Assembly (NCBI GenBank): GCA_964502345.1
Contig: CAZCWH010000006.1
Span: 1,684 to 25,683, forward strand
DNA length: 24,000 bases
Direction: 5' to 3'
DNA from: an uncultured Candidatus Saccharibacteria bacterium
GTDB taxonomy: Bacteria > Patescibacteriota > Minisyncoccia > Phycocordibacterales > UBA918
The first letter of the stretch is position 1; each line of letters begins with the position of its first letter. Made by a program: the position numbers and the translations under genes. This document shows, piece after piece, positions 1,884 through 22,945 of this stretch. The notes below the pieces were generated by a model. The model ran no database searches and was not told where the DNA came from. It saw only the letters and a program-made list of their open reading frames with translations.

Positions 1884-2957
1884 ATGAGTGGCGATTTTTG
1901 TTGTTTTCCAGTCGAGGAGCAAGTCATGGCCAGAGAAGGAATTCCGGGAAATATCACACAGAACGTCGAGAGCACCGAAGCTGGAAAGCAGCGCAAACGC
2001 GCCGCACGGAAAGCTGAGGAGAAGGCACGGCTCGCCCGGCAAGAGCAAAGCCAGAGGGACTCCGACAGAGCCTTCTTGACGCTTGCGTCGCAGGCGTCGC
2101 CCTCGCGGATGTACATCATCAGCGGGATTGTGGGCAAACGGGTGGTCCTCGACCTCTCCCATGTGAGTGGCGAGAAGACCATCAGCGGCAAGATCGTCGT
2201 CGAAGTGGTGCAGGTGCCGTTTGGCCCGCATGAGCTCGGCAGGCTGATTCCGGCCATCAAGGTCATCGGGTCGAACTACAGTTTGGTGCCTGCCGACCCA
2301 GATCTCTGGCTTCACGCCCACCTGCTCATGAAATCCGACTTTCAAACCAGGCTCGAAGGCCGCCGCGCCGAACAGCAACGCAAGATGTGGGAGGTGCTTC
2401 GGACGGCATGTGCAAAGGAAATCGAAGAAAAGAACCTCACCAGGAAGGTACGGCAAGAAGAGCCGCAGGGGCAAACGACTCCCGCCGGCCAAGTATCCAT
2501 CGAGGTCACACCTCCTGCGGTGCATGTTCCGGTTCGGCCTGCGTTCGATACGAGTGGTGCGGTCACCCTCACCGTTTCCCACATCGCGCAAAAGGCGGGA
2601 CAGTGGAATGGGGAGGTGCTCAAGGTGTGCGCCGAACGTGGCTGTGCATACTTCGTGCGTGAGTTGGTCGCGGGGTCGCGGAAGCTCGTTCTCGTGTACG
2701 CAGACGACGACCACGAGCTCGCGCCCATTCTCGACGCGCACGCGTCAGTGCAGCTGGACTTCGCGGAGTTTCTCCGAGCAGAACCCCAGCCGGCCCGTGA
2801 TCTTCACGATATCCGTGAGGCGCGGAAAGAGGTCGCTCGGTACGTGTACCACGAGCTCCGGAGGCTTGGACTGAAACCTCGGGTCGTACAGCAGGAAACG
2901 ACGAGCGCTCCTGCACTCAGGGTGAAGGACTTCAAGGCTCTGAGCCACGTGAAGTGA
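1884..2957 (+). CDS. Hypothetical protein, compositionally foreign (high GC, high GC3); no recognisable domain
   Basis: 357-aa ORF. The coding frame is supported by third-position bias: 18 of 20 codons from 2100 end in G or C. The alternative start at ATG 1926 (MAREGIPGN) is where GC begins to rise. Flanked by the promoter at 1834-1861 and the terminator at 2988-3038. Confidence 0.6.
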   Translation: MSGDFCCFPVEEQVMAREGIPGNITQNVESTEAGKQRKRAARKAEEKARLARQEQSQRDSDRAFLTLASQASPSRMYIISGIVGKRVVLDLSHVSGEKTISGKIVVEVVQVPFGPHELGRLIPAIKVIGSNYSLVPADPDLWLHAHLLMKSDFQTRLEGRRAEQQRKMWEVLRTACAKEIEEKNLTRKVRQEEPQGQTTPAGQVSIEVTPPAVHVPVRPAFDTSGAVTLTVSHIAQKAGQWNGEVLKVCAERGCAYFVRELVAGSRKLVLVYADDDHELAPILDAHASVQLDFAEFLRAEPQPARDLHDIREARKEVARYVYHELRRLGLKPRVVQQETTSAPALRVKDFKALSHVK

Positions 2958-4341: not shown

Positions 4342-4911
4342 TTATTGATTGTAGAATTTCTCGAGATAGTCTTCCTCAGTCATCACGGTGACCCTTGCGT
4401 CATGAGTGGTGTGTTCATGGTTATGGTACGTCCATGTACCAACTTTTGTGAATGTAAAATTCCATGACCCTCCCATTTTTACCCATTCACATTGGTCAAA
4501 AGAACTTCCTGCACAGTCATCTCTTCCTTTTTCTGGGTACAAACTATGGATTGGGTGATTGTCTGATGCGATCCACATTTTGTCATCGCTCACGTTCATG
4601 AATTTAACCGTTCCACCCTTGATGATTGTGACTTTGTTTGGGAGGAACTTTTTTCCGTCGTATATGACAAATGCGGTGGTAGGGAGCACAGGTGCACTGT
4701 CTACTGCTGGTTTTTTTGCAGTTGAAACGAATTTTTGAGTAGCAGTTCCTAGAGGGGTAGTTTCAAGGCTTTCCGTCGTTGTACCCATATCACCTGTTGT
4801 CTCCAGAATTGGGTCATTGACCTCTGGTGCTGCAACCTGCTCTGTCTGCATGAAGTAGAGTACACAGACAATGGTAACTACAGTCACGAGCCCGATAAGT
4901 AGCTTATGCAT
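4342..4911 (-). CDS. Membrane-anchored secreted protein with C-terminal cupredoxin-like fold (putative)
   Basis: 189 aa. It has an N-terminal hydrophobic anchor (LLIGLVTVVTIVCVLYF), a Thr/Pro-rich linker, then KVTIIKGGTVKFMNVSDDKMW...HPIH...C...C...GTWTYHNHEH, which resembles plastocyanin/EfeO-type beta-sandwich proteins with His/Cys ligand candidates. Confidence 0.55.
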   Translation of the reverse strand: MHKLLIGLVTVVTIVCVLYFMQTEQVAAPEVNDPILETTGDMGTTTESLETTPLGTATQKFVSTAKKPAVDSAPVLPTTAFVIYDGKKFLPNKVTIIKGGTVKFMNVSDDKMWIASDNHPIHSLYPEKGRDDCAGSSFDQCEWVKMGGSWNFTFTKVGTWTYHNHEHTTHDARVTVMTEEDYLEKFYNQ

Positions 4912-4968
4912 ACTCTATTCTGTAACGAAAATGGGTATATGTGCAAGCAAATATAAGTGCTTCTAGAA

Positions 4969-5001
4969 TGTGGGATTTGATCCTTACAGGATCTGTTCAG
5001 G
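4969..5001 (-). repeat. 33-nt direct repeat, copy 1 (tRNA-Ser T-arm seed plus GATCC-TTACA-GGATC hairpin)
   Basis: TGTGGGATTTGATCCTTACAGGATCTGTTCAGG is identical to 5061-5093. Its first 12 nt equal 5199-5210 inside tRNA-Ser. Confidence 0.9.
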
Positions 5002-5060
5002 GATTTGGTCACAGATAAATTTCTTACAGAAATTTTCCGCGACCCCGACTCGCTGAAAGG

Positions 5061-5093
5061 TGTGGGATTTGATCCTTACAGGATCTGTTCAGG
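5061..5093 (-). repeat. 33-nt direct repeat, copy 2
   Basis: Identical to 4969-5001. With the preceding G, 13 nt (5060-5072) equal 5198-5210 of tRNA-Ser. Confidence 0.9.
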
Positions 5094-5143
5094 TTGTATG
5101 ATATTTTCTTATAGAAAATATCGACAACCTCTTCAAATCCCAC
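5062..5143 (-). ncRNA. Candidate structured RNA / hairpin module A (three-stem element, function unknown)
   Basis: Read on the minus strand there are four pairings. Outer stem: GTGGGATTTGA (comp. 5143-5133) with TCAAATCCCAC (comp. 5072-5062). AGGTTGT (comp. 5130-5124) pairs with ACAACCT (comp. 5097-5091). GATATTTTC pairs with GAAAATATC (5100-5108 and 5114-5122). Hairpin GATCC-TGTAA-GGATC lies at 5071-5085. The module is homologous to 22868-22932 on the plus strand, with compensatory changes in the stems. Confidence 0.45.
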
Positions 5144-5149
5144 GCGCAG

Positions 5150-5189
5150 AAACTAGAAATCCCATACAAAAGTATGGGATCTCTAGTTT
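5150..5189 (-). terminator. Long hairpin immediately 3' of tRNA-Ser (possible terminator or processing signal)
   Basis: An 18-nt arm at 5150-5167 pairs with 5172-5189 at 17 of 18 positions around an AAAA/TTTT loop. The 3' arm is U-rich on the minus strand (GGGAUUUCUAGUUU). The hairpin starts 2 nt after the tRNA discriminator base. Confidence 0.45.
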
Positions 5190-5191
5190 TG

Positions 5192-5278
5192 CGGAGAGTG
5201 TGGGATTTGAACCCACGAGGGTTTTAAGGCCCTGCCTCGTTAGCAGTGAGGTGCTTTCGACCACTCAGCCAACTCTCC
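5192..5278 (-). tRNA. tRNA-Ser (anticodon GCU), class II with long variable arm; CCA not encoded
   Basis: The minus strand reads GGAGAGT-TG-GCT-GAGTGGTCGAA-AGC-A-CCTCA-CTGCTAA-CGAGG-CAGGGCCTTAAAACCCTC-GTGGG-TTCAAAT-CCCAC-ACTCTCC-G. The acceptor, D and T stems pair. The anticodon stem has one A.C mismatch next to the loop. Confidence 0.9.
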
Positions 5279-5392
5279 GTGCGTTACTTCGCAAGAACGT
5301 TCTTACGAGAGTAATTGTTCGATTCGGTTTCCTCCTTTAGTCTGTTCGCGAAAGCTCACAACGACTAATCTGCTCACATTCGTTCGCAGACC

Positions 5393-5424
5393 GGACAAGA
5401 AATGAAATTGTTCATTTCTTGTCC
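5393..5424. repeat. Perfect 14-bp inverted repeat (hairpin) in the tRNA-Ser/comFC spacer
   Basis: GGACAAGAAATGAA (5393-5406), loop ATTG, TTCATTTCTTGTCC (5411-5424). No U-tract follows on either strand. It abuts a 13-nt copy of the tRNA-Ser D-loop region (5423-5435 equals 5261-5273). Confidence 0.8.
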
Positions 5425-5484
5425 ACTCAGCCAACAACCAGTTCTCTAGATGTGCAATGGACCGAGGAAGAATAGCATATTTTT

Positions 5485-6096
5485 TTAATGGGCTAAAGCG
5501 AGGCAGGTAACCCTAAGAGGAGCTGCCTTTTGCAAAGCTATCTTTGCGGATAGCATTGTTGCTCCCGTTGTCATCACATCATCAACAAGAACGATGTGTA
5601 GATAAGCGAGCGAGTCGGTCTTTTTAAGACTGAAAGCATTTAATACATTTTTAATACGCTCTTCTTTTGGAATTTCTGTTTGTGGACGTGTATTTTTAGT
5701 ACGAATAAGTAACTTCGGATTAATCACCATCGCAGGAATCAGGGCTTGTGTATTCAAGAGGATTTCGTGAATTTGATTATACCCGCGTTCACGCATTCTT
5801 TGAGCGGAAAGTGGCATTGGAATAAACACTGCATCTTGAAACTGCGTGTGTGAACCTACGTAGAGCGCTACGAGTTTACCAAGAAGCTTCTGTGCATGTG
5901 CATTGCCATGAAACTTCGCTTCATGAATAAGTGCGCGAACAGTAGGGTTCTTGAAATCACAAAGAGTGATGCAGCCGTTAAGTCCTTGCGGAGTAAGAAG
6001 TGTTGGCAAGAATGCGTCAGTAATATTTCGAACAACGAGCGTCTCAGTGCTTGGAGGGAAGAGTATATCAAAAAATTTTTGTACAAAGACATTCAT
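5485..6096 (-). CDS. comFC: ComF family protein (ComFC-type phosphoribosyltransferase-domain competence protein)
   Basis: 203 aa. The C-terminal PRTase signature is HIVLVDDVMTTGATMLSA. Size and layout match ComFC/GntX, and it is divergently adjacent to the pilus locus. Confidence 0.8.
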   Translation of the reverse strand: MNVFVQKFFDILFPPSTETLVVRNITDAFLPTLLTPQGLNGCITLCDFKNPTVRALIHEAKFHGNAHAQKLLGKLVALYVGSHTQFQDAVFIPMPLSAQRMRERGYNQIHEILLNTQALIPAMVINPKLLIRTKNTRPQTEIPKEERIKNVLNAFSLKKTDSLAYLHIVLVDDVMTTGATMLSAKIALQKAAPLRVTCLALAH

Positions 6097-6141: not shown

Positions 6142-7233
6142 ATGGCATTTGACCTATCAAAACTCAAGTCGGTCCTCAAGATGGACATCGCGAAGCCGGT
6201 AAAAAAAGCCGTGGTGGGTGTTGATGTGGGCTCCTCATCAATCAAGGTAGTACAGCTCTTTGATAGTAAGGGAGTGCCGACACTTGAGACATACGGTGAG
6301 TTGCAACTTGGCCCGTACGAGAACGTCGATATCGGACGCACAACCCATCTTCAAGCAGTGAAGCTTACCGAAGCATTTGTCGATATTTTGCGTGAGTCAT
6401 CGGTAACGGCTAAAGATGTTGCACTCGCAGTTTCATATAGTGGTAGTTTTACTTCAATTATTCCGATTCCTACCACAAATACAGCCCAAATTAGCGCCAT
6501 GGTACCGGTGGAGGCTCGAAAATACGTTCCTGTTCCACTTATTGAGGTGACACTCGATTGGTCACCGGTTTCATCGCTTTCTGATAAAGCTGAGACCAAG
6601 GTGCTTCTCATCGCAATTCATAATGAGGTTCTTAAGAAGTACGACATCATGGTTAAAGGAGCAGGACTGAACCCTGCCTTAAATGAAATAGAGATGTTTA
6701 GCTCAATTCGTTCGGCAGTTACTCAGGAAGACGACGTAGTCGCAATCATTGATATTGGCGCTGGCTCGACGAAAGTATATATCGCAGTGAAGGGGGTAGT
6801 TGCAAAGACACACAGTGTACTCATGAGTGGAGTCGAATGCACGAATGCGCTCTCACGCGCGCTTGCGGTAGATTTCAAAAATGCAGAAGAAATGAAACGC
6901 AGATTAGGGTTGCAGGGGACAACGGATGATCCGCGCGTTACAAAGGCTCTTGCCGAGATACTTGAGCGAGGATTCCGTGAGATTCATAAGGTCATGCGGC
7001 GTTTTGAAGAGACCGATGGTGTCGAGATACAGAAAGTTATCCTGAGTGGAAGCGGCTCACTCCTGCGCGGCATTGATTTATATGCACAAGATATGTTTTC
7101 AAAACCCGTAGTGATTGCTGATCCATTTTCTAAAGTTGCATATCCAGCATTCCTCGAAGATACACTCAAAGAGGCAGGCCCATCTTTCACGGTCGCTGTT
7201 GGTGCTGCCCTCCGTGCACTCATGGCCGAGTAG
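6142..7233 (+). CDS. pilM: Type IV pilus assembly protein PilM (actin-like ATPase fold)
   Basis: 363 aa. Contains VGVDVGSSSIKVVQL and AIIDIGAGSTKVYIA phosphate-binding motifs of the actin/FtsA-like fold. It sits first in the pilMNO arrangement. Confidence 0.85.
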   Translation: MAFDLSKLKSVLKMDIAKPVKKAVVGVDVGSSSIKVVQLFDSKGVPTLETYGELQLGPYENVDIGRTTHLQAVKLTEAFVDILRESSVTAKDVALAVSYSGSFTSIIPIPTTNTAQISAMVPVEARKYVPVPLIEVTLDWSPVSSLSDKAETKVLLIAIHNEVLKKYDIMVKGAGLNPALNEIEMFSSIRSAVTQEDDVVAIIDIGAGSTKVYIAVKGVVAKTHSVLMSGVECTNALSRALAVDFKNAEEMKRRLGLQGTTDDPRVTKALAEILERGFREIHKVMRRFEETDGVEIQKVILSGSGSLLRGIDLYAQDMFSKPVVIADPFSKVAYPAFLEDTLKEAGPSFTVAVGAALRALMAE

Positions 7234-7289
7234 CAATGTCCACACCTACTCTCAGTCATCCCGTCTGCTCGTGACGTATAATATGCAGG

Positions 7290-8009
7290 ATGGCAGAATC
7301 ACCACGTTCTTCGTTTATACCTAGACAGTCAAGTACTGCAATTCCTGCAAAGATGCAGCGAAGGAGAACATTTAGTGTGTTCAATTTTCTTGCGTCGGTA
7401 ATCCTTATTGCATCGCTCATTGCCGCAGGGGGTGCATATTTCTATAAGGGAGTAGCTGAGAAGAAGCTCGTTGAAGCACAACTCAAACTTAAGGCAGAGA
7501 GTGAGAAATTTGGTATTGAAAAACTCAATGAAGTTCGTGACTTTAATCGACAACTGCTCGCCGTAAGGTACCTACTCGACCACCATATTGCACCATCCAA
7601 GATTTTTGATGCACTAGAACTTGATACACTTGGGAGCGTACAGTTCATGGAATTTACGCTTGAGTATGATCCTGAGGTAAATGACGTGCTCCTCACCGTA
7701 CTCGGCGGTACAGAAGAATTCAAGACGGTTGCACTTCAGGCACTCAAGTTTAGTGAACAGCCACTTCTCAAGGACGCCTTCTTTACCGAACTTGGATCAA
7801 AAGAAGTAACAAGTAATGAAATTGGAGTTAGTGGTACTAATGACCAATTCGAGCATGAGGTCAATTTCACTGTTGCCGGCAAAGTCCCAAGTGAATTGCT
7901 TGTGTACGGTGGAACGGAAGCAACACAAGCCGTAACAGAGGGAGTGATGGAGGCAGAGACCGTCGAAGAAGTACCGCAAAGTCCAGAGACCGTCAGTAGC
8001 CCAATTTAA
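7290..8009 (+). CDS. PilN-like bitopic membrane protein (by topology and position)
   Basis: 239 aa with a basic N-terminus, a single TM helix (FNFLASVILIASLIAAGGAYFY) and a coiled-coil segment. It lies directly after pilM. The start is uncertain; ATG 7353 is an alternative. Confidence 0.5.
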   Translation: MAESPRSSFIPRQSSTAIPAKMQRRRTFSVFNFLASVILIASLIAAGGAYFYKGVAEKKLVEAQLKLKAESEKFGIEKLNEVRDFNRQLLAVRYLLDHHIAPSKIFDALELDTLGSVQFMEFTLEYDPEVNDVLLTVLGGTEEFKTVALQALKFSEQPLLKDAFFTELGSKEVTSNEIGVSGTNDQFEHEVNFTVAGKVPSELLVYGGTEATQAVTEGVMEAETVEEVPQSPETVSSPI

Positions 8010-8011
8010 AT

Positions 8012-8578
8012 ATGTTTAGAACCATTACACCAATATTCTCAGTCGTGCTTGCAATCGCTATGTACTTCTTTTTTACGGGCGATATATTTACTGAAATTAA
8101 AACCATTCAAGCCGAGACCACTGAATATGAGGTTGCTGTGCAGAAAGGAATAGAGTACAACCAAAAGCTTGAGTCATTACTTGCTACCAAACGTTCATTT
8201 AGTCCGCTTGATTCAGAGCGCGTCGCCACACTTGTTCCAACAGACCTTGATGAAGTACGTGTCCTTGTTGATCTAGAAGCGATGGCACAAACACATAAGA
8301 TGCTCCTCGGGAATATCGAGGTGGAAAATGGGGAAGTGATTTTAGCGGGAGTCGAGGAGGGCGTATCAAGTACCGAGGTGGGGATGCGAGATTTTGCCTC
8401 AGCTGACATATCATTTGGTCTCATTGGTACGTATGACCAGTTCAGAGCGCTGCTAGCAGATATTGAGAAGAGCCTTGTACTTATGGAAATAACTAACATT
8501 GATTTCATAGCGACTGAAGGAAGTCTTCAACAGTTTGATGTGACTATCCGTGTATATTCGCTACTGTCAGCAGTGTAA
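8012..8578 (+). CDS. PilO-like bitopic membrane protein (by topology and position)
   Basis: 188 aa with an N-terminal TM helix (ITPIFSVVLAIAMYFFF), a coiled coil, then a ferredoxin-like-sized C-terminal domain. It starts 2 nt after the preceding gene. Confidence 0.5.
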   Translation: MFRTITPIFSVVLAIAMYFFFTGDIFTEIKTIQAETTEYEVAVQKGIEYNQKLESLLATKRSFSPLDSERVATLVPTDLDEVRVLVDLEAMAQTHKMLLGNIEVENGEVILAGVEEGVSSTEVGMRDFASADISFGLIGTYDQFRALLADIEKSLVLMEITNIDFIATEGSLQQFDVTIRVYSLLSAV

Positions 8579-8587
8579 TACTTACCT

Positions 8588-8887
8588 ATGTCAAATTTAC
8601 TTAAAAACCTTCTCTTTGCACTCGGACTCGCACTCTTGCTGTGGTTGGGGTACGTCCTTTTCCTTCGAGATACTGAAGAAGCACTCATCACTGCAACTGG
8701 AGAAGGAATGTCAGCAGAAGCTGCTGTAAAAACACAGGAATTTATCGTTCGACTCAACGAGCTTGATCGCATGCGACTGGATACTTCGGTTATTACTGAC
8801 TCTCGTTTTATGTCACTGGCTAATTTTAGGCAGCCGATTACTGATGAACCATCTGGACGAAACAATCCATTTGCCCCACTGCAGTAA
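8588..8887 (+). CDS. Small single-pass membrane protein, unknown function (pilus-locus accessory)
   Basis: 99 aa with an N-terminal TM helix (LLFALGLALLLWLGYVLFL). It is tightly packed between the pilO-like gene and pilB. Confidence 0.45.
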   Translation: MSNLLKNLLFALGLALLLWLGYVLFLRDTEEALITATGEGMSAEAAVKTQEFIVRLNELDRMRLDTSVITDSRFMSLANFRQPITDEPSGRNNPFAPLQ

Positions 8888-8904
8888 GTAGTGGAGTACA
8901 TTGA

Positions 8905-10776
8905 GTGAATATGAATCTTCTTGCACTCCTAGAAGAAAAAAAGGTTATTGATAAGGAGGTCGCCTCGCGTGTTGAGGTGTATGCTCGTGAGCATAATGTT
9001 TCATATGAGCGCGCACTTCTTGAGGATGGTTTTGATGAAGAGGTGATTCGTACAACGGTGAGCGAGTATTTTGAACTTCCTCCGCGCACGATACCGGAAA
9101 ACGAAAAGATTGACCCTATGGTACTCAGGTATTTGCCTGAGGAGTCTGCTCGACACTATGGGATTATTCCGCTTCGCATGGAGGATGGAGTACTTGAGGT
9201 CGGTATCACCGATCCTGAAGATCTTTCGTTTCGCGATGCACTCAATTTTATCACTTCAAAACAGCAACTTCCGTATCGCCTCGCATACATTCTCGAACAA
9301 GATTTTGAACACGCAATGCACTCATACGAAAACCTCACCGGCGAGGTTGATGAGGCTCTTGTAGACCTAGAAACTGAACTCGAAGAAGATATTGCGGAGA
9401 AGACCGAAGAAGCGAAAAAAGATCAGCGGAAAGGTGACGGAGTGGAACATATCAAGGAAGATGCTCCGGTAACTAAGATTGTTGCCACGATACTCAGATA
9501 TGCTGTTGATGGTTCGGCGTCAGATATTCATATTGAACCAACAGAGAAGAAGGTGGTCGTACGTTTCCGTGTTGATGGGATACTCGAAAATAGCCTCGAA
9601 CTTCCTTTCAAAGTCCACCTTGCAGTTGTTGCACGTATTAAAATTCTAGCTTCGCTCAGGCTCGATGAGAAGCGTAAGCCTCAAGACGGTCGTTTTTCAG
9701 CATCGATTGATGGAAGACAGATAGACTTCCGTGTTTCAATTCTTCCAACGAGTCATGGTGAGAAAGTGGTAATGCGTATTCTCGATACCGAAACAGGTGT
9801 ACGTACACTTGAAGACACCGGTGTATCAAAGTACAACATCGAGCTCATTAGGAAAGCTATTGCTCAGCCATACGGTATCATCCTCATTTCAGGACCGACA
9901 GGTTCAGGTAAGTCGACAACCTTGTATGCGATGCTCTCAGAGGTTGATCGTGTCGGGAAGAACGTTATTTCACTCGAAGACCCGGTTGAATACAGTATTG
10001 AAGGAGTAAGTCAGTCGCAGATGCGTCCTGAGATTGGATACACGTTTGCAAACGGGCTTCGCACTGCACTTCGTCAGGACCCCGATGTCATCATGGTGGG
10101 GGAGATTCGTGATAAGGAGACAGCACAACTCGCTATTCAGGCGGCGCTTACTGGTCACCTTGTGCTGTCAACAATTCACACAAACAATGCTGCGGGAGTT
10201 ATACCTCGCCTCATTGATATGGGTGTGGATCCGTACCTTATCGCACCAACTCTCCAGTTAGCCATTGCTCAACGTCTTGTACGACGTATTTGTCCAAACT
10301 CCGGAAGAAAAGTACCTGTAGAAGGTGGTATTAAAATGATGCTCGAACATGAGTTTGATGGGCTTCCTGAAAAATATAGGACAAACATCCCGAAATTTGA
10401 GTCTATTCTCTACGCTGAGCCAACCGCTGAATGTTCAAATGGAACCAAAGGTCGTGTTGCGGTTATGGAAGCAATACAGATTAACGATGAAATCCAAAAG
10501 CTTATTCTCAGCAACTCCACTGAAGAGGAAATATTGAAGACTGCACGTAGGAACGGCTTTATGAGCATGAAGGAAGATGCAATCATTAAGGCGCTTGAGC
10601 ACTCCATTCCATTTGAGGAGATCAGTACTCTTGGAGGTGCACTTCTTATGTCAGATGAGGCTGAAGAAGAGGCAAAGGTCCCTGTAGAATTAACAGAAAC
10701 AGAAAAACTTGAGGCAGAGGGGATTGAAGTAGCAGATCCAACGCCTGTCGATAACCAAGAGATTCCGAAGTTTTAA
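8905..10776 (+). CDS. pilB: Type IV pilus extension ATPase PilB (GspE family)
   Basis: 623 aa. Has a T2SSE N-terminal domain (LPEESARHYGIIPL), Walker A GPTGSGKST, Asp box SLEDPVEY, Walker B DPDVIMVGEIRD and His box TGHLVLSTIHTNNA. The start is GTG 8905 or ATG 8911. Confidence 0.95.
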   Translation: MNMNLLALLEEKKVIDKEVASRVEVYAREHNVSYERALLEDGFDEEVIRTTVSEYFELPPRTIPENEKIDPMVLRYLPEESARHYGIIPLRMEDGVLEVGITDPEDLSFRDALNFITSKQQLPYRLAYILEQDFEHAMHSYENLTGEVDEALVDLETELEEDIAEKTEEAKKDQRKGDGVEHIKEDAPVTKIVATILRYAVDGSASDIHIEPTEKKVVVRFRVDGILENSLELPFKVHLAVVARIKILASLRLDEKRKPQDGRFSASIDGRQIDFRVSILPTSHGEKVVMRILDTETGVRTLEDTGVSKYNIELIRKAIAQPYGIILISGPTGSGKSTTLYAMLSEVDRVGKNVISLEDPVEYSIEGVSQSQMRPEIGYTFANGLRTALRQDPDVIMVGEIRDKETAQLAIQAALTGHLVLSTIHTNNAAGVIPRLIDMGVDPYLIAPTLQLAIAQRLVRRICPNSGRKVPVEGGIKMMLEHEFDGLPEKYRTNIPKFESILYAEPTAECSNGTKGRVAVMEAIQINDEIQKLILSNSTEEEILKTARRNGFMSMKEDAIIKALEHSIPFEEISTLGGALLMSDEAEEEAKVPVELTETEKLEAEGIEVADPTPVDNQEIPKF

Positions 10777-10800
10777 TGAGTATAATGAAGCTTACACACT

Positions 10801-11199
10801 ATGAAAATTCTTCTTGTTGATGATGATGAGTTTCTTCGCGACATGTACGCCACGAAATTTGGTGAGGATGGACATACTGTGCATGTAGCACAGAATGGAC
10901 CTGAGGCACTCGGGATAATGGCTAATGAGCGTTTTGATGCCGTGCTCATGGATGTAATTATGCCTGGAATGACAGGAGTTGAACTTCTAAAAAAGATTAA
11001 AGAATCAGGTCTCTCGTATAGTCCTACATGTATTGTGCTCTCAAATCAGGGCGAGCAACACGATATCGATGATGCAACACAGGCAGGTGCTCACGGTTAC
11101 ATTATTAAAGCGGAAATGATCCCGAGTGAAGTCGTGGAAAAGGTTAAGAGTATAGTCCTGGGTAATACACCGAGCGCACCAACATATGGCAACAGTTGA
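10801..11199 (+). CDS. Stand-alone response regulator receiver domain (CheY/PilH-like)
   Basis: 132 aa. Has the acidic pocket LLVDDDE, the phospho-acceptor context AVLMDVIMPGMTG, a conserved Ser in CIVLSNQG and Lys in GYIIKAEM. There is no output domain. Confidence 0.85.
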   Translation: MKILLVDDDEFLRDMYATKFGEDGHTVHVAQNGPEALGIMANERFDAVLMDVIMPGMTGVELLKKIKESGLSYSPTCIVLSNQGEQHDIDDATQAGAHGYIIKAEMIPSEVVEKVKSIVLGNTPSAPTYGNS

Positions 11200-12256
11200 T
11201 TATAAAAGAGAATTAGAGGATCTCATTGATATCGTTATTACTGAAAACGGGTCTGATATCCATCTTTCACTTAATTCTCATCCAATCATTCGTGTCGCGG
11301 GAGCACTCATTCCACTCATTAAGAAGCCAATTTTAAATACGAACGATCTCACGGGATTTTTGCGTGTACTCCTTACTAAGGAGAAGGAGGCAAAATTTAT
11401 GGAGACAAGCGAAATCGACTTCTCGTTCGCTGCTCAAAAGGGAGTACGGTTTCGAGGTAACTGCTTTTTTCAGAAAGGGTCTATCGCGATTGCGCTTCGA
11501 CATATTCCGAGTAACGTTCGTACGTTTAGCGAGCTCATGCTCCCACCAATACTTGAGACATTTACACAGAGACCACAGGGATTTTTCCTTTGTGTGGGGC
11601 CGGTAGGACAGGGAAAGTCCACAACACTCGCCGCCATGGTTGATCTGATTAACTCAACACGCGCAGAGCACATTGTGACAATCGAAGATCCTATCGAGTA
11701 CATTTTTGAACCTAAAAAATCTCTTGTTGAACAACGTGAAGTGGGCCTTGATACAGCAGATTTTTATACTGGCCTCCACTCCGCATTCCGACAGGACGTA
11801 GACGTCATCATGGTGGGTGAGATGCGTGGTCATGAAACTATCAGTACAGCCGTAACCGCTGCAGAAACAGGTCACCTTGTGTTCTCGACACTCCACACAA
11901 ATAATGCTGCACAAACTCTCGACCGTATCATTGATACATTTCCTGCAGAGCAGCAAGATCAAATCCGTACCCAGCTTTCGGGCTCACTTGCAGCAATCTT
12001 CTCGCAACGACTCATTCCACGTATCTCAGGAGGTCTTATTCCAGCCTACGAGCTCCTCATAAATAACTCTGCAGTCGCAAATCTTATCCGTGAGAGGCGG
12101 ACACATGAAATTCAGACAGTCATTGAGACTGGGCTAGAACACGGTATGATAGATATGAACCGCTCGCTCGTTGAACTTGTTCAGAAAGGAGAAGTCACTG
12201 TCGAGAACGCCTTTGCGTATTCAACAAATCCAAAAGGTCTTGAACGTTTGATGTAA
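11186..12256 (+). CDS. pilT: Type IV pilus retraction ATPase PilT
   Basis: 356 aa. Contains GSDIHL, Walker A GPVGQGKSTT, TIEDPIEY, DVDVIMVGEMRG, TGHLVFSTLHTNNA and AANLIRE-type motifs. Confidence 0.93.
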   Translation: MATVDYKRELEDLIDIVITENGSDIHLSLNSHPIIRVAGALIPLIKKPILNTNDLTGFLRVLLTKEKEAKFMETSEIDFSFAAQKGVRFRGNCFFQKGSIAIALRHIPSNVRTFSELMLPPILETFTQRPQGFFLCVGPVGQGKSTTLAAMVDLINSTRAEHIVTIEDPIEYIFEPKKSLVEQREVGLDTADFYTGLHSAFRQDVDVIMVGEMRGHETISTAVTAAETGHLVFSTLHTNNAAQTLDRIIDTFPAEQQDQIRTQLSGSLAAIFSQRLIPRISGGLIPAYELLINNSAVANLIRERRTHEIQTVIETGLEHGMIDMNRSLVELVQKGEVTVENAFAYSTNPKGLERLM

Positions 12257-12267
12257 TAACAACACAT

Positions 12268-13476
12268 ATGCTCTTCTCATATAAAGCAATTGATCAGTCG
12301 AGCACCCCACGTGAGGGGACTGTTGAAGCGAAGAATACTGAGTCTGCGATTCAGACGGTACAAGACCGCGGGTACACTATTATTTCAGTTGAGCCACTCA
12401 ATGAAAAGAAGTCAGCACTCAATATTGAAATCAAGTGGTTTGAACGTGTTTCAAATAAGGAGGTGGTGATTCTGTCGAGGCAGATATCAACGCTCTTTGA
12501 GGCACAGGTATCAGCGCTCCGTGTGTTTAGGTTACTTGCGGCAGAAACAGAAAATCCAAAATTGCAGCGCATCATGACCGAAATCTCAGACGATTTGCAA
12601 GGAGGAAGTTCGATTTCAAGGGCACTTGCGAATCACCCTGATGTATTTACACCTTTTTACGTAAGCATGGTCCGCTCAGGCGAAGAATCAGGTACGCTCG
12701 AGCAAGTGTTTGCGTACCTTGCAGATTATCTCGACCGAATGTACCAGGTAGTCTCAAAGGCTCGGAACGCACTCATCTACCCAGGGTTCGTGATTTCGAT
12801 ATTTATTGCCGTGATGCTCCTTATGCTTACTCTGGTTATTCCACGCATCAGTGAAATTCTCACAAGCTCAGGACAAGAAATTCCAATTTATACAAAAATC
12901 GTCATCGGTCTTTCTGATTTCTTTGCGAATTATATTGGTCTCATAGCGATAGCAGTTGCGCTCATTGGAATTGTGTTCTGGCAATTTATGAAGACTGCAG
13001 TCGGACGCCGTGCTGTTGATGAGTTTAAGCTCAAGATTCCAGTCATCGGAGATCTCTATGAAAAATTGTTTTTGACACGTATTTGCGACAACCTTTCGAC
13101 AATGCTTTCCTCAGGTATCTCAATGGTACAGGCACTTGAGATTACCGCTGAAGTTGTTGATAATGCGGTGTATCGGGAAATCATTGAAGATACCGTCGTT
13201 GATGTAAAAGGAGGGAAGTCGTTTGCTGACTCTATTTCTGAATATCCAGAGATTCCAGGTGTGCTCGCACAAATGAGTAAGGTTGGAGAGGAAACAGGTA
13301 AGCTTGGAGACATTCTCAGCACACTCTCAACGTTCTACCGACGTGAAGTAAACAATTCTGTTGATACACTCATTTCGCTCATTGAACCAGCCATGATTGT
13401 GCTTCTCGGTCTTGGGGTAGGAACACTACTCGCTTCTGTGCTTATCCCAATTTATAACATCACGGGCTCTATATAG
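12268..13476 (+). CDS. pilC: Type IV pilus platform protein PilC (GspF family)
   Basis: 402 aa. Shows the duplicated T2SSF domain architecture with three TM segments and a typical C-terminus (EPAMIVLLGLGVGTLLASVLIPIYNI). Confidence 0.9.
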   Translation: MLFSYKAIDQSSTPREGTVEAKNTESAIQTVQDRGYTIISVEPLNEKKSALNIEIKWFERVSNKEVVILSRQISTLFEAQVSALRVFRLLAAETENPKLQRIMTEISDDLQGGSSISRALANHPDVFTPFYVSMVRSGEESGTLEQVFAYLADYLDRMYQVVSKARNALIYPGFVISIFIAVMLLMLTLVIPRISEILTSSGQEIPIYTKIVIGLSDFFANYIGLIAIAVALIGIVFWQFMKTAVGRRAVDEFKLKIPVIGDLYEKLFLTRICDNLSTMLSSGISMVQALEITAEVVDNAVYREIIEDTVVDVKGGKSFADSISEYPEIPGVLAQMSKVGEETGKLGDILSTLSTFYRREVNNSVDTLISLIEPAMIVLLGLGVGTLLASVLIPIYNITGSI

Positions 13477-13500
13477 ACGTATGAGGGGCAGTATAAAAAA

Positions 13501-13530
13501 CTGAGCTACCGTAGGTGGCTCAGTTTTTTA
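13501..13530 (+). terminator. Rho-independent terminator after pilC
   Basis: CTGAGCTACC (13501-13510) pairs with GGTGGCTCAG (13514-13523, one G.T), followed by TTTTTTA. An A-run precedes the stem. Confidence 0.65.
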
Positions 13531-13619
13531 TACACACATGAAGGCCAAAACCTACTGAAACCTCGTATAATGGTAGGTAACCACACTACGTGGAGTAATA
13601 TATTACTTATTTATAATTT

Positions 13620-14051
13620 ATGATGAACAATAATACATACAAACGAGGTTTCACACTCATCGAGCTCCTCGTAGTGATCGCCATCATCGGTATCCTTGCA
13701 TCCGTTGTACTCGCGTCACTAAACTCAGCTCGCGATAAGGGTGCAGATGCAGCTGCAAAGTCTTCAATGAATAACGCTCGAGCGCAGTCAGAGTTGTACT
13801 ACGATGACAATGCTCGAACATACACAACTGTATGTACAGCGGGTACTAACAACATTTCACCATTGCTTGATGCAGCCGATGCTGCAGTTACAGCTGCAGA
13901 TGCTTGTTTTGATACTGCCGCGGGTTGGGCAGCATCAATCGACCTCAATGCAACTGGAGCAGCAGGTTGGTACTGCGTTGATAGTACAGGATTCGGAGGT
14001 ACACTTGCAGCTGACCCTGCAATTTCGGACGCAAACCTTACTTGTCTATAG
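13620..14051 (+). CDS. Type IV pilin (probable major pilin)
   Basis: 143 aa. Prepilin signature KRG/FTLIELLVVIAIIGILASVVL (class III signal peptide with Glu5). The C-terminal domain has four Cys, giving two potential disulfides. Confidence 0.9.
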   Translation: MMNNNTYKRGFTLIELLVVIAIIGILASVVLASLNSARDKGADAAAKSSMNNARAQSELYYDDNARTYTTVCTAGTNNISPLLDAADAAVTAADACFDTAAGWAASIDLNATGAAGWYCVDSTGFGGTLAADPAISDANLTCL

Positions 14052-14066
14052 AAGTACGCTATACAC

Positions 14067-14096
14067 AAAAAAACGCCCTCAGGGCGTTTTTTTGTT
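14067..14096. terminator. Bidirectional rho-independent terminator between the convergent pilin genes
   Basis: AAAAAAACGCCC-TCA-GGGCGTTTTTTT gives a GC stem flanked by complementary A and T runs. Confidence 0.75.
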
Positions 14097-14124
14097 GTAT
14101 TACCTCAACACCACTTTTTACACA

Positions 14125-14610
14125 TCAGAAGCGAGAAGTACATAATGTTGTAGCATTTGCGGCATACCATACAGCACATCCATACGGTCCAGGGCCACGG
14201 GTAACACTACAATAGTTGCTCCCGCCCTTATCTTGTTCTGTGTTTACGGCGAGCAAAATTGATTTTCTATCTGCTGAGACGCAGTAATAATAGTGTGTTG
14301 CAGCTTCAGGTGGAACGCTTGTCATAAACTGTGTTGAACTGAAGAAACTCGGTTCAATTCCACTGAGGTTTCCTCCAGTATTTACGCCAGCAACACCAAA
14401 ATATGGATATACTCCATCGGTTGTAAAGTATAATTCTAATGCCTTAAGTACTTCTTGGATTTGAGTTTTTCGAGCAGCGTCCCGTCCTTTTGTTCGCGAA
14501 TCTTGAACAGACATAGCAACGATACTTGCAAGTACTCCAATAATTGCCATCACTACAAGTAACTCGATAAGCGTAAATCCAAGTGTTTTATAAAAGTTTT
14601 TGACAAACAT
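14125..14610 (-). CDS. Type IV pilin (second pilin, opposite strand)
   Basis: Prepilin signature MFVKNFYKTLG/FTLIELLVVMAIIGVLASIV. I place the start at ATG 14610 rather than the TTG at 14628 used by the ORF track. The C-terminal domain has four Cys. Confidence 0.88.
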   Translation of the reverse strand: MFVKNFYKTLGFTLIELLVVMAIIGVLASIVAMSVQDSRTKGRDAARKTQIQEVLKALELYFTTDGVYPYFGVAGVNTGGNLSGIEPSFFSSTQFMTSVPPEAATHYYYCVSADRKSILLAVNTEQDKGGSNYCSVTRGPGPYGCAVWYAANATTLCTSRF

Positions 14611-14767
14611 AAGTAGATCAACACACAATTATACCTTTTTTTGTTTGAATTACGCTTCTTTTTCGGGTAACAAGAGCATTCATACATGTCAGATCAGCTG
14701 ATGTACATAGATTGGTAGTGATGGATATTTTTCTCGCCACCTGTTCGGATAAGGTACAATAATGTGA

Positions 14768-15589
14768 ATGGAACTATATTGGTTTGTTATTGTCTTTGTA
14801 TTCGGTGCCATCATTGGCAGTTTTCTTAATGTGGTTATCTATCGCCTTCATACCGGAAGGTCTCTCAATGGTCGTTCACACTGTATGACCTGTGGGACTC
14901 ATCTGAGATGGTTTGAACTCTTTCCTGTTTTTTCATATGTAATACTTCTTGCGAAGTGTCGTTATTGTAGGGCTTTTATTCCGAGCCGGTATCTGCTCGT
15001 CGAAATGCTCACAGGGATCTCATTTGTCCTTTTATGGCAAAGCATGAGTCATAATCTAGTACTCTTTGGACTCTATGGAGGTCTCATCTCAACACTCATT
15101 ATTATTCTCCTCTATGATATTCGGCATACCATAATCCCGGATGAACTCACGGTCATTGTGGGAATTTTCGCGCTTGTGATACTTGGATACGAGTATGTCG
15201 AGTATAGAGACCTCGCGACACTCATTTACGATGTACTTGGTGGTATGTCAGCAGGTCTTTTCTTTGCGGGGCTCTGGTACGTTTCAAGAGGGAGGTGGAT
15301 TGGTTTAGGGGATGCAAAGCTTGCGCTCCCTTTGGCAATAATAGTTGGATACAACCAAGTGTTTTCGATGGTTGTGCTCTCGTTTTGGGTTGGTGCGATA
15401 GTTAGTCTCACAATCTTATCTTTACAGCATCTGCTTGAAAGGTGGAAAACACACTTACCTTATCTCACGCAAACCATTACAATGAAGAGTGAGGTTCCCT
15501 TTGCCCCCTTTCTTATCGCGGGATTCTTGCTCGCCCACTTCTTTCATGCGGATATCTTCGACATCACTAACAGCCTCTTATTCTTCTAA
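14768..15589 (+). CDS. pilD: Prepilin peptidase / N-methyltransferase PilD (peptidase A24)
   Basis: 273 aa polytopic membrane protein. Has an N-terminal CxxC...CxxC motif (CMTCG...CRYCR) and conserved Asp contexts (YDIRHTIIPD and GLGDAKL). Confidence 0.9.
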   Translation: MELYWFVIVFVFGAIIGSFLNVVIYRLHTGRSLNGRSHCMTCGTHLRWFELFPVFSYVILLAKCRYCRAFIPSRYLLVEMLTGISFVLLWQSMSHNLVLFGLYGGLISTLIIILLYDIRHTIIPDELTVIVGIFALVILGYEYVEYRDLATLIYDVLGGMSAGLFFAGLWYVSRGRWIGLGDAKLALPLAIIVGYNQVFSMVVLSFWVGAIVSLTILSLQHLLERWKTHLPYLTQTITMKSEVPFAPFLIAGFLLAHFFHADIFDITNSLLFF

Positions 15590-16169
15590 TATTTGCCCGC
15601 GTGCCCGTGGGTTTACATTAGTTGAGCTTCTTATTTCAATTGCGATTATTAGTGTCATCTCGGCACTTGTTATCGTCAAGTTCTCGGCGTTTGACAGTAC
15701 CGTTCTTCTTAAGAGTGCTGCATATGAAGTTGCGCTCTCACTCCGTGACGCACAGGTGTACTCAATAAGTGTGCACGGACAAACAGGTCAATTTGATTAT
15801 CCGTACGGTGTACACTTTGTGCCAGGGAATACGTACACCTTCTTTAGAGACAGTGTTGTAGGAGCTTCACCTCCCATCTATCTGGCCGGGACAGATACAA
15901 ATATTAATACGTTCACCATTGGAAGGTCTATAGTCATACAGAGTGTCTGTGTAACGAACTCAGCTGGATCAGAGACATGTGCAACAAGCGCTTCTAATCC
16001 CGTACTCGACATTTCTTTCAGACGACCTGAATTTAGTGCGCTTTTCTACTCTGATTTACTTGGAGGTGGAATAGTATCTGCAAAGATTAAACTCCAATCG
16101 ACTACAGGGACAGAGGTCTGGGTTGTTGAGGTGGGACTCTTGGGTCAAATCTCAGTGTATAAGCAGTGA
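15546..16169 (+). CDS. Minor pilin / pseudopilin 1
   Basis: Prepilin motif RG/FTLVELLISIAIISVISALVIV. The start is uncertain. The only in-frame ATGs (15489, 15546) lie inside pilD. An ATT at 15591 would give a canonical 7-aa leader. Confidence 0.75.
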   Translation: MRISSTSLTASYSSNICPRARGFTLVELLISIAIISVISALVIVKFSAFDSTVLLKSAAYEVALSLRDAQVYSISVHGQTGQFDYPYGVHFVPGNTYTFFRDSVVGASPPIYLAGTDTNINTFTIGRSIVIQSVCVTNSAGSETCATSASNPVLDISFRRPEFSALFYSDLLGGGIVSAKIKLQSTTGTEVWVVEVGLLGQISVYKQ

Positions 16170-16170
16170 T

Positions 16171-16773
16171 ATGTATCGTATGAGTATTTTTAAAGTAAAA
16201 AGGAAGATACCATCACAATCAGGCTTTTCGCTTATTGAACTAATGGTATCGCTCACCATTTTCTCTCTCGTCATGGTGGTGAGTATTAGTACACTTCTCA
16301 CCATTATTGATGCGAATGCGAAAGCACAGGCACTCTACTCGTCGATGACGAACCTCTCCTTTGCTGTCGATAGTATGAGTCGAAACACCCGCACCGCGTA
16401 TGATCACTATTGTGGTAGTTATGCAAATGTGAGTGGTGCTAACCTTCCAGCAGGGAACAGGGACTGTAGCGGTGGAGACGCGATTGTCTTTACGCGTGAA
16501 CGGGATGGGAGTCGAGTCGGGTATCGTTGGGATAGCAACAAGATGACGATTGAGCAAAAAATTGCAGGAGTTGCGAACGACGCATGGCTTCCTATTACCT
16601 CCTCCACAACTAAAATAACAGTTTTTGAGGTAACAGTGGATGGAAGTACAGGCGGGGATGATAGGCAAACAAACGTCACGATACTCATCAATGGGTATGT
16701 AATGAACGGCCTTGATACATCAACAGATTTTGTCCTTCAAACCAATGTTACTCAGCGAATTTTGAATTATTAA
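16171..16773 (+). CDS. Minor pilin / pseudopilin 2
   Basis: Prepilin motif SG/FSLIELMVSLTIFSLVMVV. ATG 16171 follows the upstream stop by 1 nt, so the ORF-track start at 16123 is probably an over-extension. Confidence 0.8.
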   Translation: MYRMSIFKVKRKIPSQSGFSLIELMVSLTIFSLVMVVSISTLLTIIDANAKAQALYSSMTNLSFAVDSMSRNTRTAYDHYCGSYANVSGANLPAGNRDCSGGDAIVFTRERDGSRVGYRWDSNKMTIEQKIAGVANDAWLPITSSTTKITVFEVTVDGSTGGDDRQTNVTILINGYVMNGLDTSTDFVLQTNVTQRILNY

Positions 16774-16774
16774 T

Positions 16775-17392
16775 ATGAAACGTCTTGGACAAAAGAAGTG
16801 TATAGACGCAGTGCAGGGTGGTTTTACTCTTGTAGAAACTCTTGTTGCAATCAGTATCCTCCTTCTTGTAGTTATTGGGCCAATGACTATCGCCGCAAAG
16901 GGAATGCAGATGGGATATTACGCCAATGAGCAGAGTACAGCAGTATTTATGGCACAAGAGGCAATCGAATCGATTCAGAAATTACGTGACGATAATGCCC
17001 TCGCACTCCTCGAGAGTCCTCCGACGAGTGCAAACTCATGGGACTGGTATAACAATCTTCCTGATTCCTGCAAGATGGACGGTGGCAATGATAATGGGTG
17101 TGATTTAGATATTACTGGACCAAGCTATATTAATTGTAATGCGACAAGTACGTGCACAATTGAGATGGATACGAATAATGTCGGTATCGTTATATATGGA
17201 TACGGTGGGGGAGGTTGGGTCCCTACAATTTTTAACCGTTTCATTCGGGTTGAACCAGAAGTTGTGGGGGGTGTCACCATTGGTGCGAAAGTAAGCGTAA
17301 CGGTTACTTGGCCTGCACACCTTTTTTCCGACACGAACCGCGTGGTAAGGATGCAGACATGGATATATGATCACTATCAACACTTTGAATAA
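16775..17392 (+). CDS. Minor pilin / pseudopilin 3
   Basis: Prepilin motif GG/FTLVETLVAISILLLVVIGP. Starts 1 nt after the upstream stop. Confidence 0.8.
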   Translation: MKRLGQKKCIDAVQGGFTLVETLVAISILLLVVIGPMTIAAKGMQMGYYANEQSTAVFMAQEAIESIQKLRDDNALALLESPPTSANSWDWYNNLPDSCKMDGGNDNGCDLDITGPSYINCNATSTCTIEMDTNNVGIVIYGYGGGGWVPTIFNRFIRVEPEVVGGVTIGAKVSVTVTWPAHLFSDTNRVVRMQTWIYDHYQHFE

Positions 17393-17393
17393 T

Positions 17394-22648: not shown

Positions 22649-22742
22649 TTTGCATATCTCTGAGACATGAGGTACATTCTTGTGTACATTATGTTGTTCA
22701 CGTTGAACACATAACACACTTCAACGCGAGTAGAGGAAGAGG

Positions 22743-22811: not shown

Positions 22812-22822
22812 ACATATAATCG

Positions 22823-22932: not shown

Positions 22933-22945
22933 GAGGAGAGGTAGA

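Follow-up and report, generated by a model that had tools for sequence, protein, structure and literature searches.

What is the structured module that stands beside both tRNA genes of a 24,000-nt stretch of DNA (contig CAZCWH010000006.1, hereafter the window) from an uncultured Candidatus Saccharibacteria bacterium? Module A occupies positions 5143-5060 of the minus strand and module B positions 22844-22932 of the plus strand. The reading favored here, at a probability of about 0.5, is that both belong to an undescribed family of non-autonomous, structured insertion elements of Patescibacteria (Paceibacteria/Kaiserbacteria lineage).

The original prediction, made from the letters of the window alone, had aligned the two modules and noted in addition a 33-nt repeat and an extra stem-TGTAA-stem hairpin. 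All of these are present. The modules align over 5143-5060 (minus) and 22871-22932 (plus), the hairpin lies at 5036-5017, and a repeat finder returned both inter-locus matches together with the 33-nt direct repeat (4969-5001 = 5061-5093, 100%). Module B was found to extend further in the 5' direction by TGAGA-P1-CGCAAG (22844-22870), a part that lies inside a duplicated 5' fragment of the initiator tRNA-Met (tRNA-iMet). Beyond what had been noticed, the flanks proved to be fragments of the neighboring tRNAs, and the element is dispersed, insertion-like and not specific to tRNAs.

One genome per species was scanned for the pattern AGGTTGTC-N14-44-ACAACCTGAACAG. The exact pattern matched at least 118 loci (designated here by L numbers); the matches listed, apart from chance ones, lie in 45 Patescibacteria genomes, a single genome having up to 13 exact-pattern copies. 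Five of the listed genome matches are non-Patescibacteria and represent chance matches (L103, L109, L111, L113 and L114). The remaining listed loci all come from Patescibacteria metagenome-assembled genomes (MAGs) labelled Kaiserbacteria, Paceibacteria, Nomurabacteria or Minisyncoccia. With a covariance model made from 119 copies, about 30 further, diverged copies were recovered within the same loci, and in the window the model scored the full copies at 79.6 bits (A) and 81.4 bits (B) and a partial copy at 4980-5028 at 25.3 bits. The scan of a viral collection gave two matches, both by chance in coding DNA.

No known RNA family could be assigned when the modules were first noticed, and this still holds. 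At the gathering threshold Rfam 15 matched only the two tRNAs in the whole window, at E <= 10 no credible match fell on the module in region 4900-5300, and 18 family loci returned only rRNA, tRNA and group I introns. Among the papers searched, whether by topic or by sequence, none carries the sequence or describes the element. Further copies thus exist, their covariation is supported (see below), and no described family was matched. A protein-coding module was rejected, as the core lengths lack multiple-of-3 periodicity.

Many of the host MAGs are binchicken bins labelled 'Saccharibacteria', and the 'Candidatus Saccharibacteria' labels on many binchicken MAGs look generic. One contig binned as 'Rickettsiales' (L085; JANNVO010000169.1, 1969 nt) carries two modules in a Patescibacteria-like nusG/secE context and is probably mis-binned.

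Fold, covariation and closure

Four pieces make up the constant scaffold of the module, which is about 70-115 nt long: (TGAGA-P1-CGC)AAG, a basal helix AGGTTGT/ACAACCT that carries C and AU bulges, GAACAG as the junction, and P3, a hairpin with a GUA loop. Aligned over 119 copies, the module is invariant or almost so at the junction bases, in the bulges and at the central GTA of the P3 loop. P2 differs between copies in both sequence and length (14-44 nt), and P3 is hypervariable. Module A folds into the closed three-way junction with outer stem that had been proposed for it (dG = -36.9 kcal/mol, z = -6.0); module B folds into three consecutive hairpins (z = -2.3).

Compensatory stem changes had been read from the two window copies, which are insufficient as proof. 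The 119 aligned copies show covariation. Standard pairs fill 95.4% of the cells of the named structure, compared with 38-48% when the partners are slid, and double-sided changes occur at all 13 pairs left free by the search pattern (339 cells). None of 500 shuffles reached the observed covariation. As the basal helix is fixed by the search pattern, it was assessed on 27 diverged copies instead, in which G:C is exchanged with C:G at two positions and U:A with C:G or G:C, G:C with U:A, and U:A with A:U at three other positions. Much of the supposedly single-stranded sequence is therefore helix: the identical segments of 11 and 15 nt are indeed there, but they contain the covarying helix AGGTTGT:ACAACCT, and the core is unpaired only at AAG, the C and AU bulges and GAACAG. 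The covariation in the 119 and the 27 copies supports selection on a folded single strand, either RNA or single-stranded DNA (ssDNA), over selection on a duplex site, as originally argued.

The bases around GUA in P3 also covary as pairs (C:G in 101/119 copies; U:A in 90/119, U:A or U:G in 98/119), which makes the P3 loop a GUA triloop closed by U:A and C:G. The resemblance to an anticodon loop that had been pointed out is lost with this, and neither ARAGORN nor the Rfam tRNA model calls the module; what tRNA-like sequence there is belongs to the flanks. Mismatches of the G.T kind outnumber A.C (43 vs 23, p = 0.019), indicating that the strand as written is the folding strand.

Quasi-palindrome template switching can alter both arms at once, and the covariation might be a by-product of this process acting on a duplex-DNA feature such as a promoter or a dimeric protein site. 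In both window copies the conserved segment, taken as its reverse complement, gives the promoter-like sequence CTTACA-16 nt-TATGAT (9/12 match). In addition, only one substitution and a C:G to A:U exchange in P3 separate two orthologous tRNA-Lys trailers (L036 and L100), and such a double change would fit template switching. Nevertheless, promoter-like matches occurred at chance frequency in scans, a promoter leaves the invariant spacer, bulges and junction unexplained, and the P2 length range and the excess of G.T over A.C mismatches also speak against a duplex site. Moreover, the outer stem and the basal helix covary across the intervening hairpin, which local template switching does not explain. 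We regard the duplex-DNA explanation as extremely improbable; a sigma-70 promoter was rejected on the chance-frequency matches and on a spacing that depends on the variable P2.

The P1 hairpin and the outer stem are mutually exclusive closures of the fold. In the P1 type (89/122 copies, and module B among them), TGAGA, a 7-9-bp P1 hairpin with the usual loop TGGGA, and (T)CGCAAG lie 5' of the core. The base before TGAGA is nearly always G, and the flanks are unpaired (duplex energy -8.3 vs -7.5 kcal/mol for shuffled flanks). P1-less copies such as module A have ...GAAR before the core, and their 5' and 3' flanks pair together (-14.4 vs -8.8 kcal/mol shuffled; 23/32 at -10 or below). The helix beside AAG is thus either a local hairpin or a long-range stem, which amounts to circular permutation of one three-helix junction.

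Flanking gene fragments and sites of the module

A tRNA called by ARAGORN lies within 350 nt of 46 of the 122 copies, an underestimate because intron-containing tRNAs and block-edge copies are missed. In trailers, an intact tRNA is followed by a terminator-like hairpin, an antisense copy of the T loop, T stem and acceptor 3' strand of the same tRNA, GAAR, the module, a direct copy from the T loop to the 3' end, and a second terminator. The DNA between the tRNA repeats measures 130-200 nt and is non-coding. The 3' flank is identical to the T-loop-to-3' end of the upstream tRNA in at least 13 P1-less copies, with matches of 12-13 nt in the window, 21 nt in L061, 24 nt including CCA in L115 and more than 35 nt including the terminator in L013; the direct copy in L033 likewise includes CCA. 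Module A has this layout. The tRNA-Ser segment TCAAATCCCAC occurs as its reverse complement GTGGGATTTGA at 5143-5133 and is repeated directly at 5071-5060, and the 11-bp outer stem consists of an inverted and a direct copy of the adjacent T-loop/T-stem.

In leaders, the tRNA is preceded by a partial copy of its own 5' part, and the module splits this copy at position 8/9 or 25/26 or within the D loop or the T loop. One to three target nucleotides are replaced, and the intact tRNA then lies downstream. Module B is of this kind, in the order leader plus CGCGGGGT (22823-22844), module, GAGGAGAGGTA (tRNA positions 10-20), GA, leader and tRNA-iMet; a TATAAT at 22815-22820 places the whole unit within the transcribed leader. 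A k-mer test showed the same polarity in the family, the 5' flank of P1-type copies being repeated downstream and the 3' flank of P1-less copies upstream. The intact gene copy lies downstream of P1-type modules and upstream of P1-less ones. The repeated flank segments measure between 8 and more than 55 nt, and more of the target often intervenes between them and the module.

Sites other than tRNAs were also found. A third class of copies lies inside the loop of a terminator-like hairpin (L059, L064 and L098). In L010 and L058 the module sits in a pseudo-5S fragment downstream of 5S rRNA, on the opposite strand. The insertion points are single-stranded positions of hairpin-forming genes, namely tRNA 8/9, D loop, 25/26 and T loop, 5S loop B and terminator loops. 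If the target is essential, only a fragment of it is interrupted and an intact copy stands next to this fragment. The module also follows a 39-nt duplicate of the msrA start in two genomes (L039 and L055) and is itself followed there by intact msrA. Other copies lie between or before rplK/rplA, rplJ/rplL, rplL, tuf, fusA, infC, nusA, nusG, greA and ftsZ. Two of about 120 copies are in open reading frames (ORFs) of one genome, in grpE (L027) and in a comEC-like gene (L040); both are about 96 nt long, sense, in frame and stop-free, as predicted for a DNA insertion that survives translation, whereas splicing would impose no such constraint.

Orthologous tRNA-iMet loci were fetched via the conserved 202-aa gene upstream of the window tRNA-iMet, and the synteny ligA-gatC-gatA-202aa-(tRNA-iMet)-NTP-transferase is conserved. 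The leader site is filled at position 8/9 in the window, L006, L056 and L107, and empty in L122/L123, L126 and L128, which have only the gene, the leader and an intact tRNA. L125 carries a different core subfamily (ACCTT...AAGGT, GTACAG) between perfect 35-nt direct repeats and L127 a degenerate core, and in L121 and L124 the tRNA locus has given way to another gene. A filled site (L117) and an empty one (L112) were also seen upstream of tuf, and ACGTG, which forms the P3 3' strand of L117, is already present in L112. Finally, one genome has two copies (L038 and L043) whose identity spans exactly TGAGA...CATCTGTAA, 84 nt, between unrelated flanks.

Tandem arrays of module plus flank with periods of 92-220 nt were observed in L092 (3700-4000), L035 (3884-4101), L034 and the window (4970-5093), and suggest unequal recombination between duplicated flanks. 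Group I introns were seen in L002 (7319-7578), L006 (4876-5065), L107 and L126, lying in the anticodon loop of a tRNA with anticodon GTG (L002) and, in several of these genomes, in that of tRNA-iMet; ARAGORN misses such tRNAs.

Competing readings and known systems

The insertion element is favored by the size of the family, the covariation, the polarity of the duplicated flanks, orthologous sites that are filled or empty, both orientations relative to the host gene, the in-frame ORF copies, the pair of identical copies, and the companion hairpins and tandem arrays. An element of this type would spread at the DNA level, with its folded single strand (ssDNA or an RNA intermediate) presumably recognized by a trans-acting protein. 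The three-helix junction would be closed by the local P1 or by pairing of the 5' segment of the element with the 3' flank of the target. Single-stranded loops of hairpin-forming genes would serve as targets, and in essential genes the element would survive only beside a restored intact copy. The intact neighbor may arise because the insert carries a replacement gene end, like tRNA-targeting integrative elements, or because insertion occurs into one copy of a tandem duplication that is later trimmed.

Several observations weigh against an insertion element. No transposase, integrase or reverse transcriptase was found beside any copy in the window and the fetched 8-kb blocks, and among 1194 ORFs of the fetched 8-kb loci no protein was multi-copy within a genome. 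Terminal inverted repeats are absent, the ends TGAGA... and ...CTGTAA(G)/P3 being unrelated, and no fixed-length target duplication was found among the flank repeats. The 3' boundary is inconsistent, lying at the P3 loop in L038/L043 and tuf and after P3 in most tRNA-leader copies. In orthologous copies at tRNA-Val (L001/L075/L116), tRNA-Lys (L036/L100) and tRNA-iMet, compensatory changes keep the fold while the spacers diverge, which points to selection in place, not experienced by a dead transposon copy. The pseudo-fragments follow their own tRNA (C1 vs A1 in iMet). Copies near tRNAs favor the strand of the tRNA (38 same vs 8 opposite, p = 9e-6), and copies in the 5' untranslated regions of highly expressed genes are common; these two features fit a transcribed functional RNA too.

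The maintained orthologous folds, the tRNA-specific pseudo-fragments and the strand bias also fit a host-serving, cis-acting RNA domain of tRNA precursors and highly expressed mRNAs, with a role in processing, stability or folding insulation. The tRNA-derived flanks would then be functional, and the antisense segment would either sequester a decoy 3' end or act as a switch between this end and the real one. It is able to pair with either 3' end of tRNA-Ser. The position of module B downstream of TATAAT in a transcribed leader agrees with such a role, as do copies 40-60 nt upstream of the start codons of tuf, rplL, nusG, nusA and infC, and at iMet an antisense-module-sense trailer with a different module occurs in all orthologs examined. 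Nevertheless, two genomes carry the module antisense to 5S rRNA and eight nearby tRNAs have it on the opposite strand, trailer copies lie behind a terminator-like hairpin, and other copies are in frame in ORFs or in terminator loops. At orthologous sites of related genomes the module is missing and nothing visible takes its place, identical copies stand at loci that are unrelated, and no common class of downstream gene is required. We consider a cis-acting RNA domain doubtful on balance. A co-transcribed mobile element may have to fold to be harmless, and the competing readings are not mutually exclusive.

Selfish spread at the RNA level was also considered. The module would be a new self-cleaving ribozyme or intron-like RNA that returns to DNA by reverse transcription, and its conserved G|UGAGA boundary and two permuted closures would reflect a putative catalysis. 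The natural permutation of helix closure, the invariant junction nucleotides amid freely varying helices and the conserved GUGAGA 5' junction are compatible with this, and so are insertion points that match single-stranded positions of tRNA and 5S RNA and a bias toward highly expressed RNAs. However, antisense copies in 5S fragments and beside some tRNAs cannot come from insertion into sense RNA, the in-frame and stop-free state of both ORF copies would be needless under splicing, and the interrupted tRNA copies are truncated and backed by intact genes. The core is unlike hammerhead or any Rfam ribozyme or intron, and no reverse transcriptase was found nearby. Selfish RNA is thus judged very unlikely. 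An intron was disfavored by the antisense 5S copies, the in-frame ORF copies and the truncated host fragments. For group II/III-like introns in particular, only the GUGAG-like 5' junction is similar, and no AGC-triad hairpin is present.

A more far-reaching and unlikely reading is that mobile elements (or catalytic RNAs) of a new, structure-guided class have the module as their recognizable core and choose their targets through base-pairing by two of their own segments. The 5' strands of P3 and of the outer stem would pair with the 3' flank of the target in tRNA, 5S and terminator loops, the P1 type would be the self-closed and the outer-stem type the target-bound state of one fold, and the host would be protected by a carried or created replacement of the interrupted gene end. 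The stricter idea that the P3 3' strand is always derived from the target was rejected; it fits tuf, GNRA terminator loops and partly T loops, but the match in tRNA leaders is only about 33%. With a target-completed P3 the residual loops of terminator-loop copies would be GGAA or GAAA. Completion of P3 by target sequence is a lead only. No autonomous version turned up in a search for 5' and 3' halves set apart by an enclosed gene; the search yielded only diverged copies and a single nested insertion.

The family is uncatalogued, while its kind is known from other small hairpin repeats, including Rickettsia palindromic elements (RPE), REP/REPIN, PATE, attC and mitochondrial double-hairpin elements. 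The RPE are reportedly dispersed hairpin repeats of roughly 100-150 nt in a reduced genome, with no associated transposase, and are said to occur, as the module does, in intergenic DNA, beside or in RNA genes, and in frame in protein genes as tolerated peptide insertions. The two copies in grpE and the comEC-like gene are RPE-like in this sense, being in-frame, stop-free insertions in otherwise intact genes. The module is unrelated to RPE in sequence. It also differs in its three-helix junction, whose unpaired bases are invariant, in the GUA loop, in its two permuted closures, in being strongly associated with tRNAs, in the adjacent partial target duplications and in having only 2 of about 120 copies in ORFs.

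REP/REPIN-RAYT (IS200/IS605-like Y1 HUH) and the IS200/IS605-derived PATEs are, like the module, miniature, non-autonomous and hairpin-based without terminal inverted repeats. They too likely act as folded ssDNA and persist and diversify within lineages, and the possible pairing between element and flank is reminiscent of the guide/cleavage-site pairing of IS608. Unlike REP, the 119 aligned copies show no GTAG head or doublet symmetry, no fixed tetranucleotide target was found, and the stems are far more variable within a genome. No RAYT/TnpA gene or transposase domain was found in the window or the fetched 8-kb blocks around copies.

tRNA-targeting integrative elements reportedly use tyrosine-integrase att sites in the T loop or anticodon loop. 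They are said to leave, as in the module trailers, an intact tRNA, the insert and a displaced direct copy from the T loop to the 3' end, sometimes with CCA and the original terminator, the insert restoring the interrupted gene. In the module trailers a direct repeat of the tRNA 3' segment likewise bounds the insert and the tRNA is restored. Differences are the size of the insert (only about 130-200 nt and non-coding, so that no integrase gene lies inside), the extra antisense copy of the tRNA 3' end that pairs with the displaced copy, and additional insertions on the 5' side (position 8/9, D loop, position 26).

Integron attC sites function as a folded single strand and share with the module multiple copies, structure kept over sequence, a bulged basal helix and a variable terminal part (14-44 nt here). 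Nevertheless, RYYYAAC...GTTRRRY is absent, AGGTTGT/ACAACCT being in the opposite 5'-3' order with mismatched R positions; the copies are dispersed and not in cassette arrays, no IntI gene was seen, and the module has a three-way junction and, in P3, an extra hairpin. In fungal mitochondrial DNA, double-hairpin elements and GC clusters are small mobile multi-hairpin modules with compensatory changes in intergenic DNA, variable regions of rRNA and ORFs, with duplicated gene termini. They belong to another compartment and lineage, have no sequence similarity and fold differently. With hammerhead and twister the module has in common a three-way junction, invariant junction nucleotides, variable helices, circular permutation, many copies and repeat association. 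Its core reads AAG/GAACAG/GUA loop, compared with CUGANGA/GAA/UH in the ribozyme, no Rfam ribozyme matched, and catalysis is putative. A hammerhead was rejected, given junction strands of AAG, GAACAG and 0-1 nt and a CUGAACA that lacks G8. A classical miniature inverted-repeat transposable element was likewise rejected, as there are neither terminal inverted repeats nor a fixed-length target-site duplication. What distinguishes the family is the three-helix junction with invariant unpaired bases, the permuted closure, an outer stem made from the antisense 3' end of a host tRNA, the systematic nesting in duplicated gene fragments and the restriction to Patescibacteria.

Patescibacteria have genomes of about 1 Mb with little non-coding DNA, yet keep, in clusters around genes for tRNA, 5S rRNA and translation, at least 12 copies of a fold of about 100 nt and two or more families of companion hairpins. 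As a mobile element, the module would offer a compact, easily recognized marker of genome dynamics in an uncultured radiation and would show how a parasite lives in essential RNA genes without killing its host, and the enzyme acting with it would be a candidate tool for DNA insertion directed by structure or by a guide. If it is a functional RNA, few lineage-specific structured RNAs of the candidate phyla radiation would be as abundant. Whichever reading holds, the pseudo-tRNA fragments can mislead tRNA and gene annotation of such MAGs.

Features of the window and companion hairpins

The window is a bacterial chromosome segment with ligA, gatC/gatA, a type IV pilus cluster and a comF-like gene, and contains only the two tRNAs listed in Table 1.

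Table 1. Positions of the modules and of adjoining features in the window
Feature	Positions	Strand	Sequence elements and remarks
Intact tRNA-Ser(GCU)	5191-5278	-	ARAGORN; Rfam tRNA 57.3 bits; module A in its 3' trailer
Terminator-like hairpin between tRNA-Ser and module A	5150-5190	-	AAAACTAGAGATCCCATAC-TTTT-GTATGGGATTTCTAGTTT
Outer-stem 5' strand of module A, then junction bases AG	5131-5143	-	GTGGGATTTGAAG, with GTGGGATTTGA at 5143-5133; antisense of tRNA-Ser T-loop and T-stem 3' strand
Module A core	5085-5130	-	AGGTTGTC (5130-5123); P2 GATATTTTCTATAAGAAAATATC (5122-5100) = GATATTTTC-TATAA-GAAAATATC; ATACAACCTGAACAG (5099-5085); basal helix AGGTTGT/ACAACCT, C and AU bulges, variable P2, junction GAACAG
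Module A P3 hairpin	5072-5084	-	ATCCTGTAAGGAT, with ATCC-TGTAA-GGAT; hypervariable stem, invariant GTA
Outer-stem 3' strand of module A	5060-5071	-	CAAATCCCACAC; direct copy of tRNA-Ser T-loop/T-stem 3' end
Stand-alone stem-TGTAA-stem hairpin	5017-5036	-	AAAATTTC-TGTAA-GAAATTT
Partial tandem copy	4970-5001	-	CCTGAACAG, P3, third copy of tRNA-Ser T-arm fragment; 92-nt period
22-nt direct repeat, first copy	22823-22844	+	14-nt leader and tRNA-iMet positions 1-8 (pseudo 5' fragment)
Module B 5' part	22844-22870	+	TGAGA, P1 hairpin GACAGTCC-TGT-GGACTGTC, GCAAG junction
Module B core	22871-22919	+	AGGTTGTC (22871-22878); P2 (22879-22904) = CATATTTC-GAGTTTACGA-GAAATATG; ATACAACCTGAACAG (22905-22919); basal helix, junction GAACAG
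Module B P3 hairpin	22920-22932	+	GTTCTGTAAGAAC, GTTC-TGTAA-GAAC
Pseudo D-arm fragment	22933-22943	+	GAGGAGAGGTA, tRNA-iMet positions 10-20; continues interrupted 5' copy
Second leader copy (22946-22959) and intact initiator tRNA-Met (22960-23031, C1:A72)	22946-23031	+	ARAGORN; Rfam

The large type IV pilus/competence-like cluster at 6142-17966 encodes PilM, a PilB-like ATPase, PilT, PilC, a prepilin peptidase and several N-methyl pilins, and the comF-like gene lies at 5485-6096. The cluster may be relevant if DNA uptake helps the element to spread. Positions 1884-2957 (+) form an island of 61% GC in a window of 45% GC and carry a 357-aa orphan ORF with no Pfam match. Both strands of the island hold long ORFs, and it is possibly foreign DNA.

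The module has companion hairpins. The P1-type hairpin was found 82 times in the loci, about half of these without a canonical core (alone or before a variant core). A third hairpin family with the loop GAGCGTAGCGAA/GAACGAAGTGAA gave 31 matches in 28 fetched loci, often close to the module; it is represented in the window at 23186-23211 (+) and is nested inside a module in L016 (about 600-650).

The tRNA-iMet trailer contains a second, different structured module at 23072-23215 (+). It consists of the antisense acceptor TTGCGGGGCC, a hairpin, the antisense T loop GTCGGAATCGAAC, GAGCGG-hairpin-GGTGAGCTGAGCTAAC, a hairpin with the loop GAGCGTAGCGAA and then a decayed sense copy. The antisense-module-sense layout is that of module A with a different core. 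This module was also seen in L126, L127, L128 and L122, and is kept even where the leader module is missing.

Upstream of module B, at 22726-22789 (+), lies a pseudo-tRNA-iMet with a D arm split by the P1-like hairpin GTAATCAATCC-AGT-GGATTGATTAC and with the anticodon-arm-like hairpin GGGGAGGC-GTAG-CCTCCC. It recurs in L127 (2333-2410) on the other side of the module unit. Upstream of tRNA-Ser, at 5395-5432 (-), GTTGGCTGAGTGG is identical to tRNA-Ser positions 6-18 and is followed by the 12-bp hairpin ACAAGAAATGAA-CAAT-TTCATTTCTTGT. This is another hairpin-interrupted pseudo-5' tRNA fragment, with a hairpin of a type different from P1.

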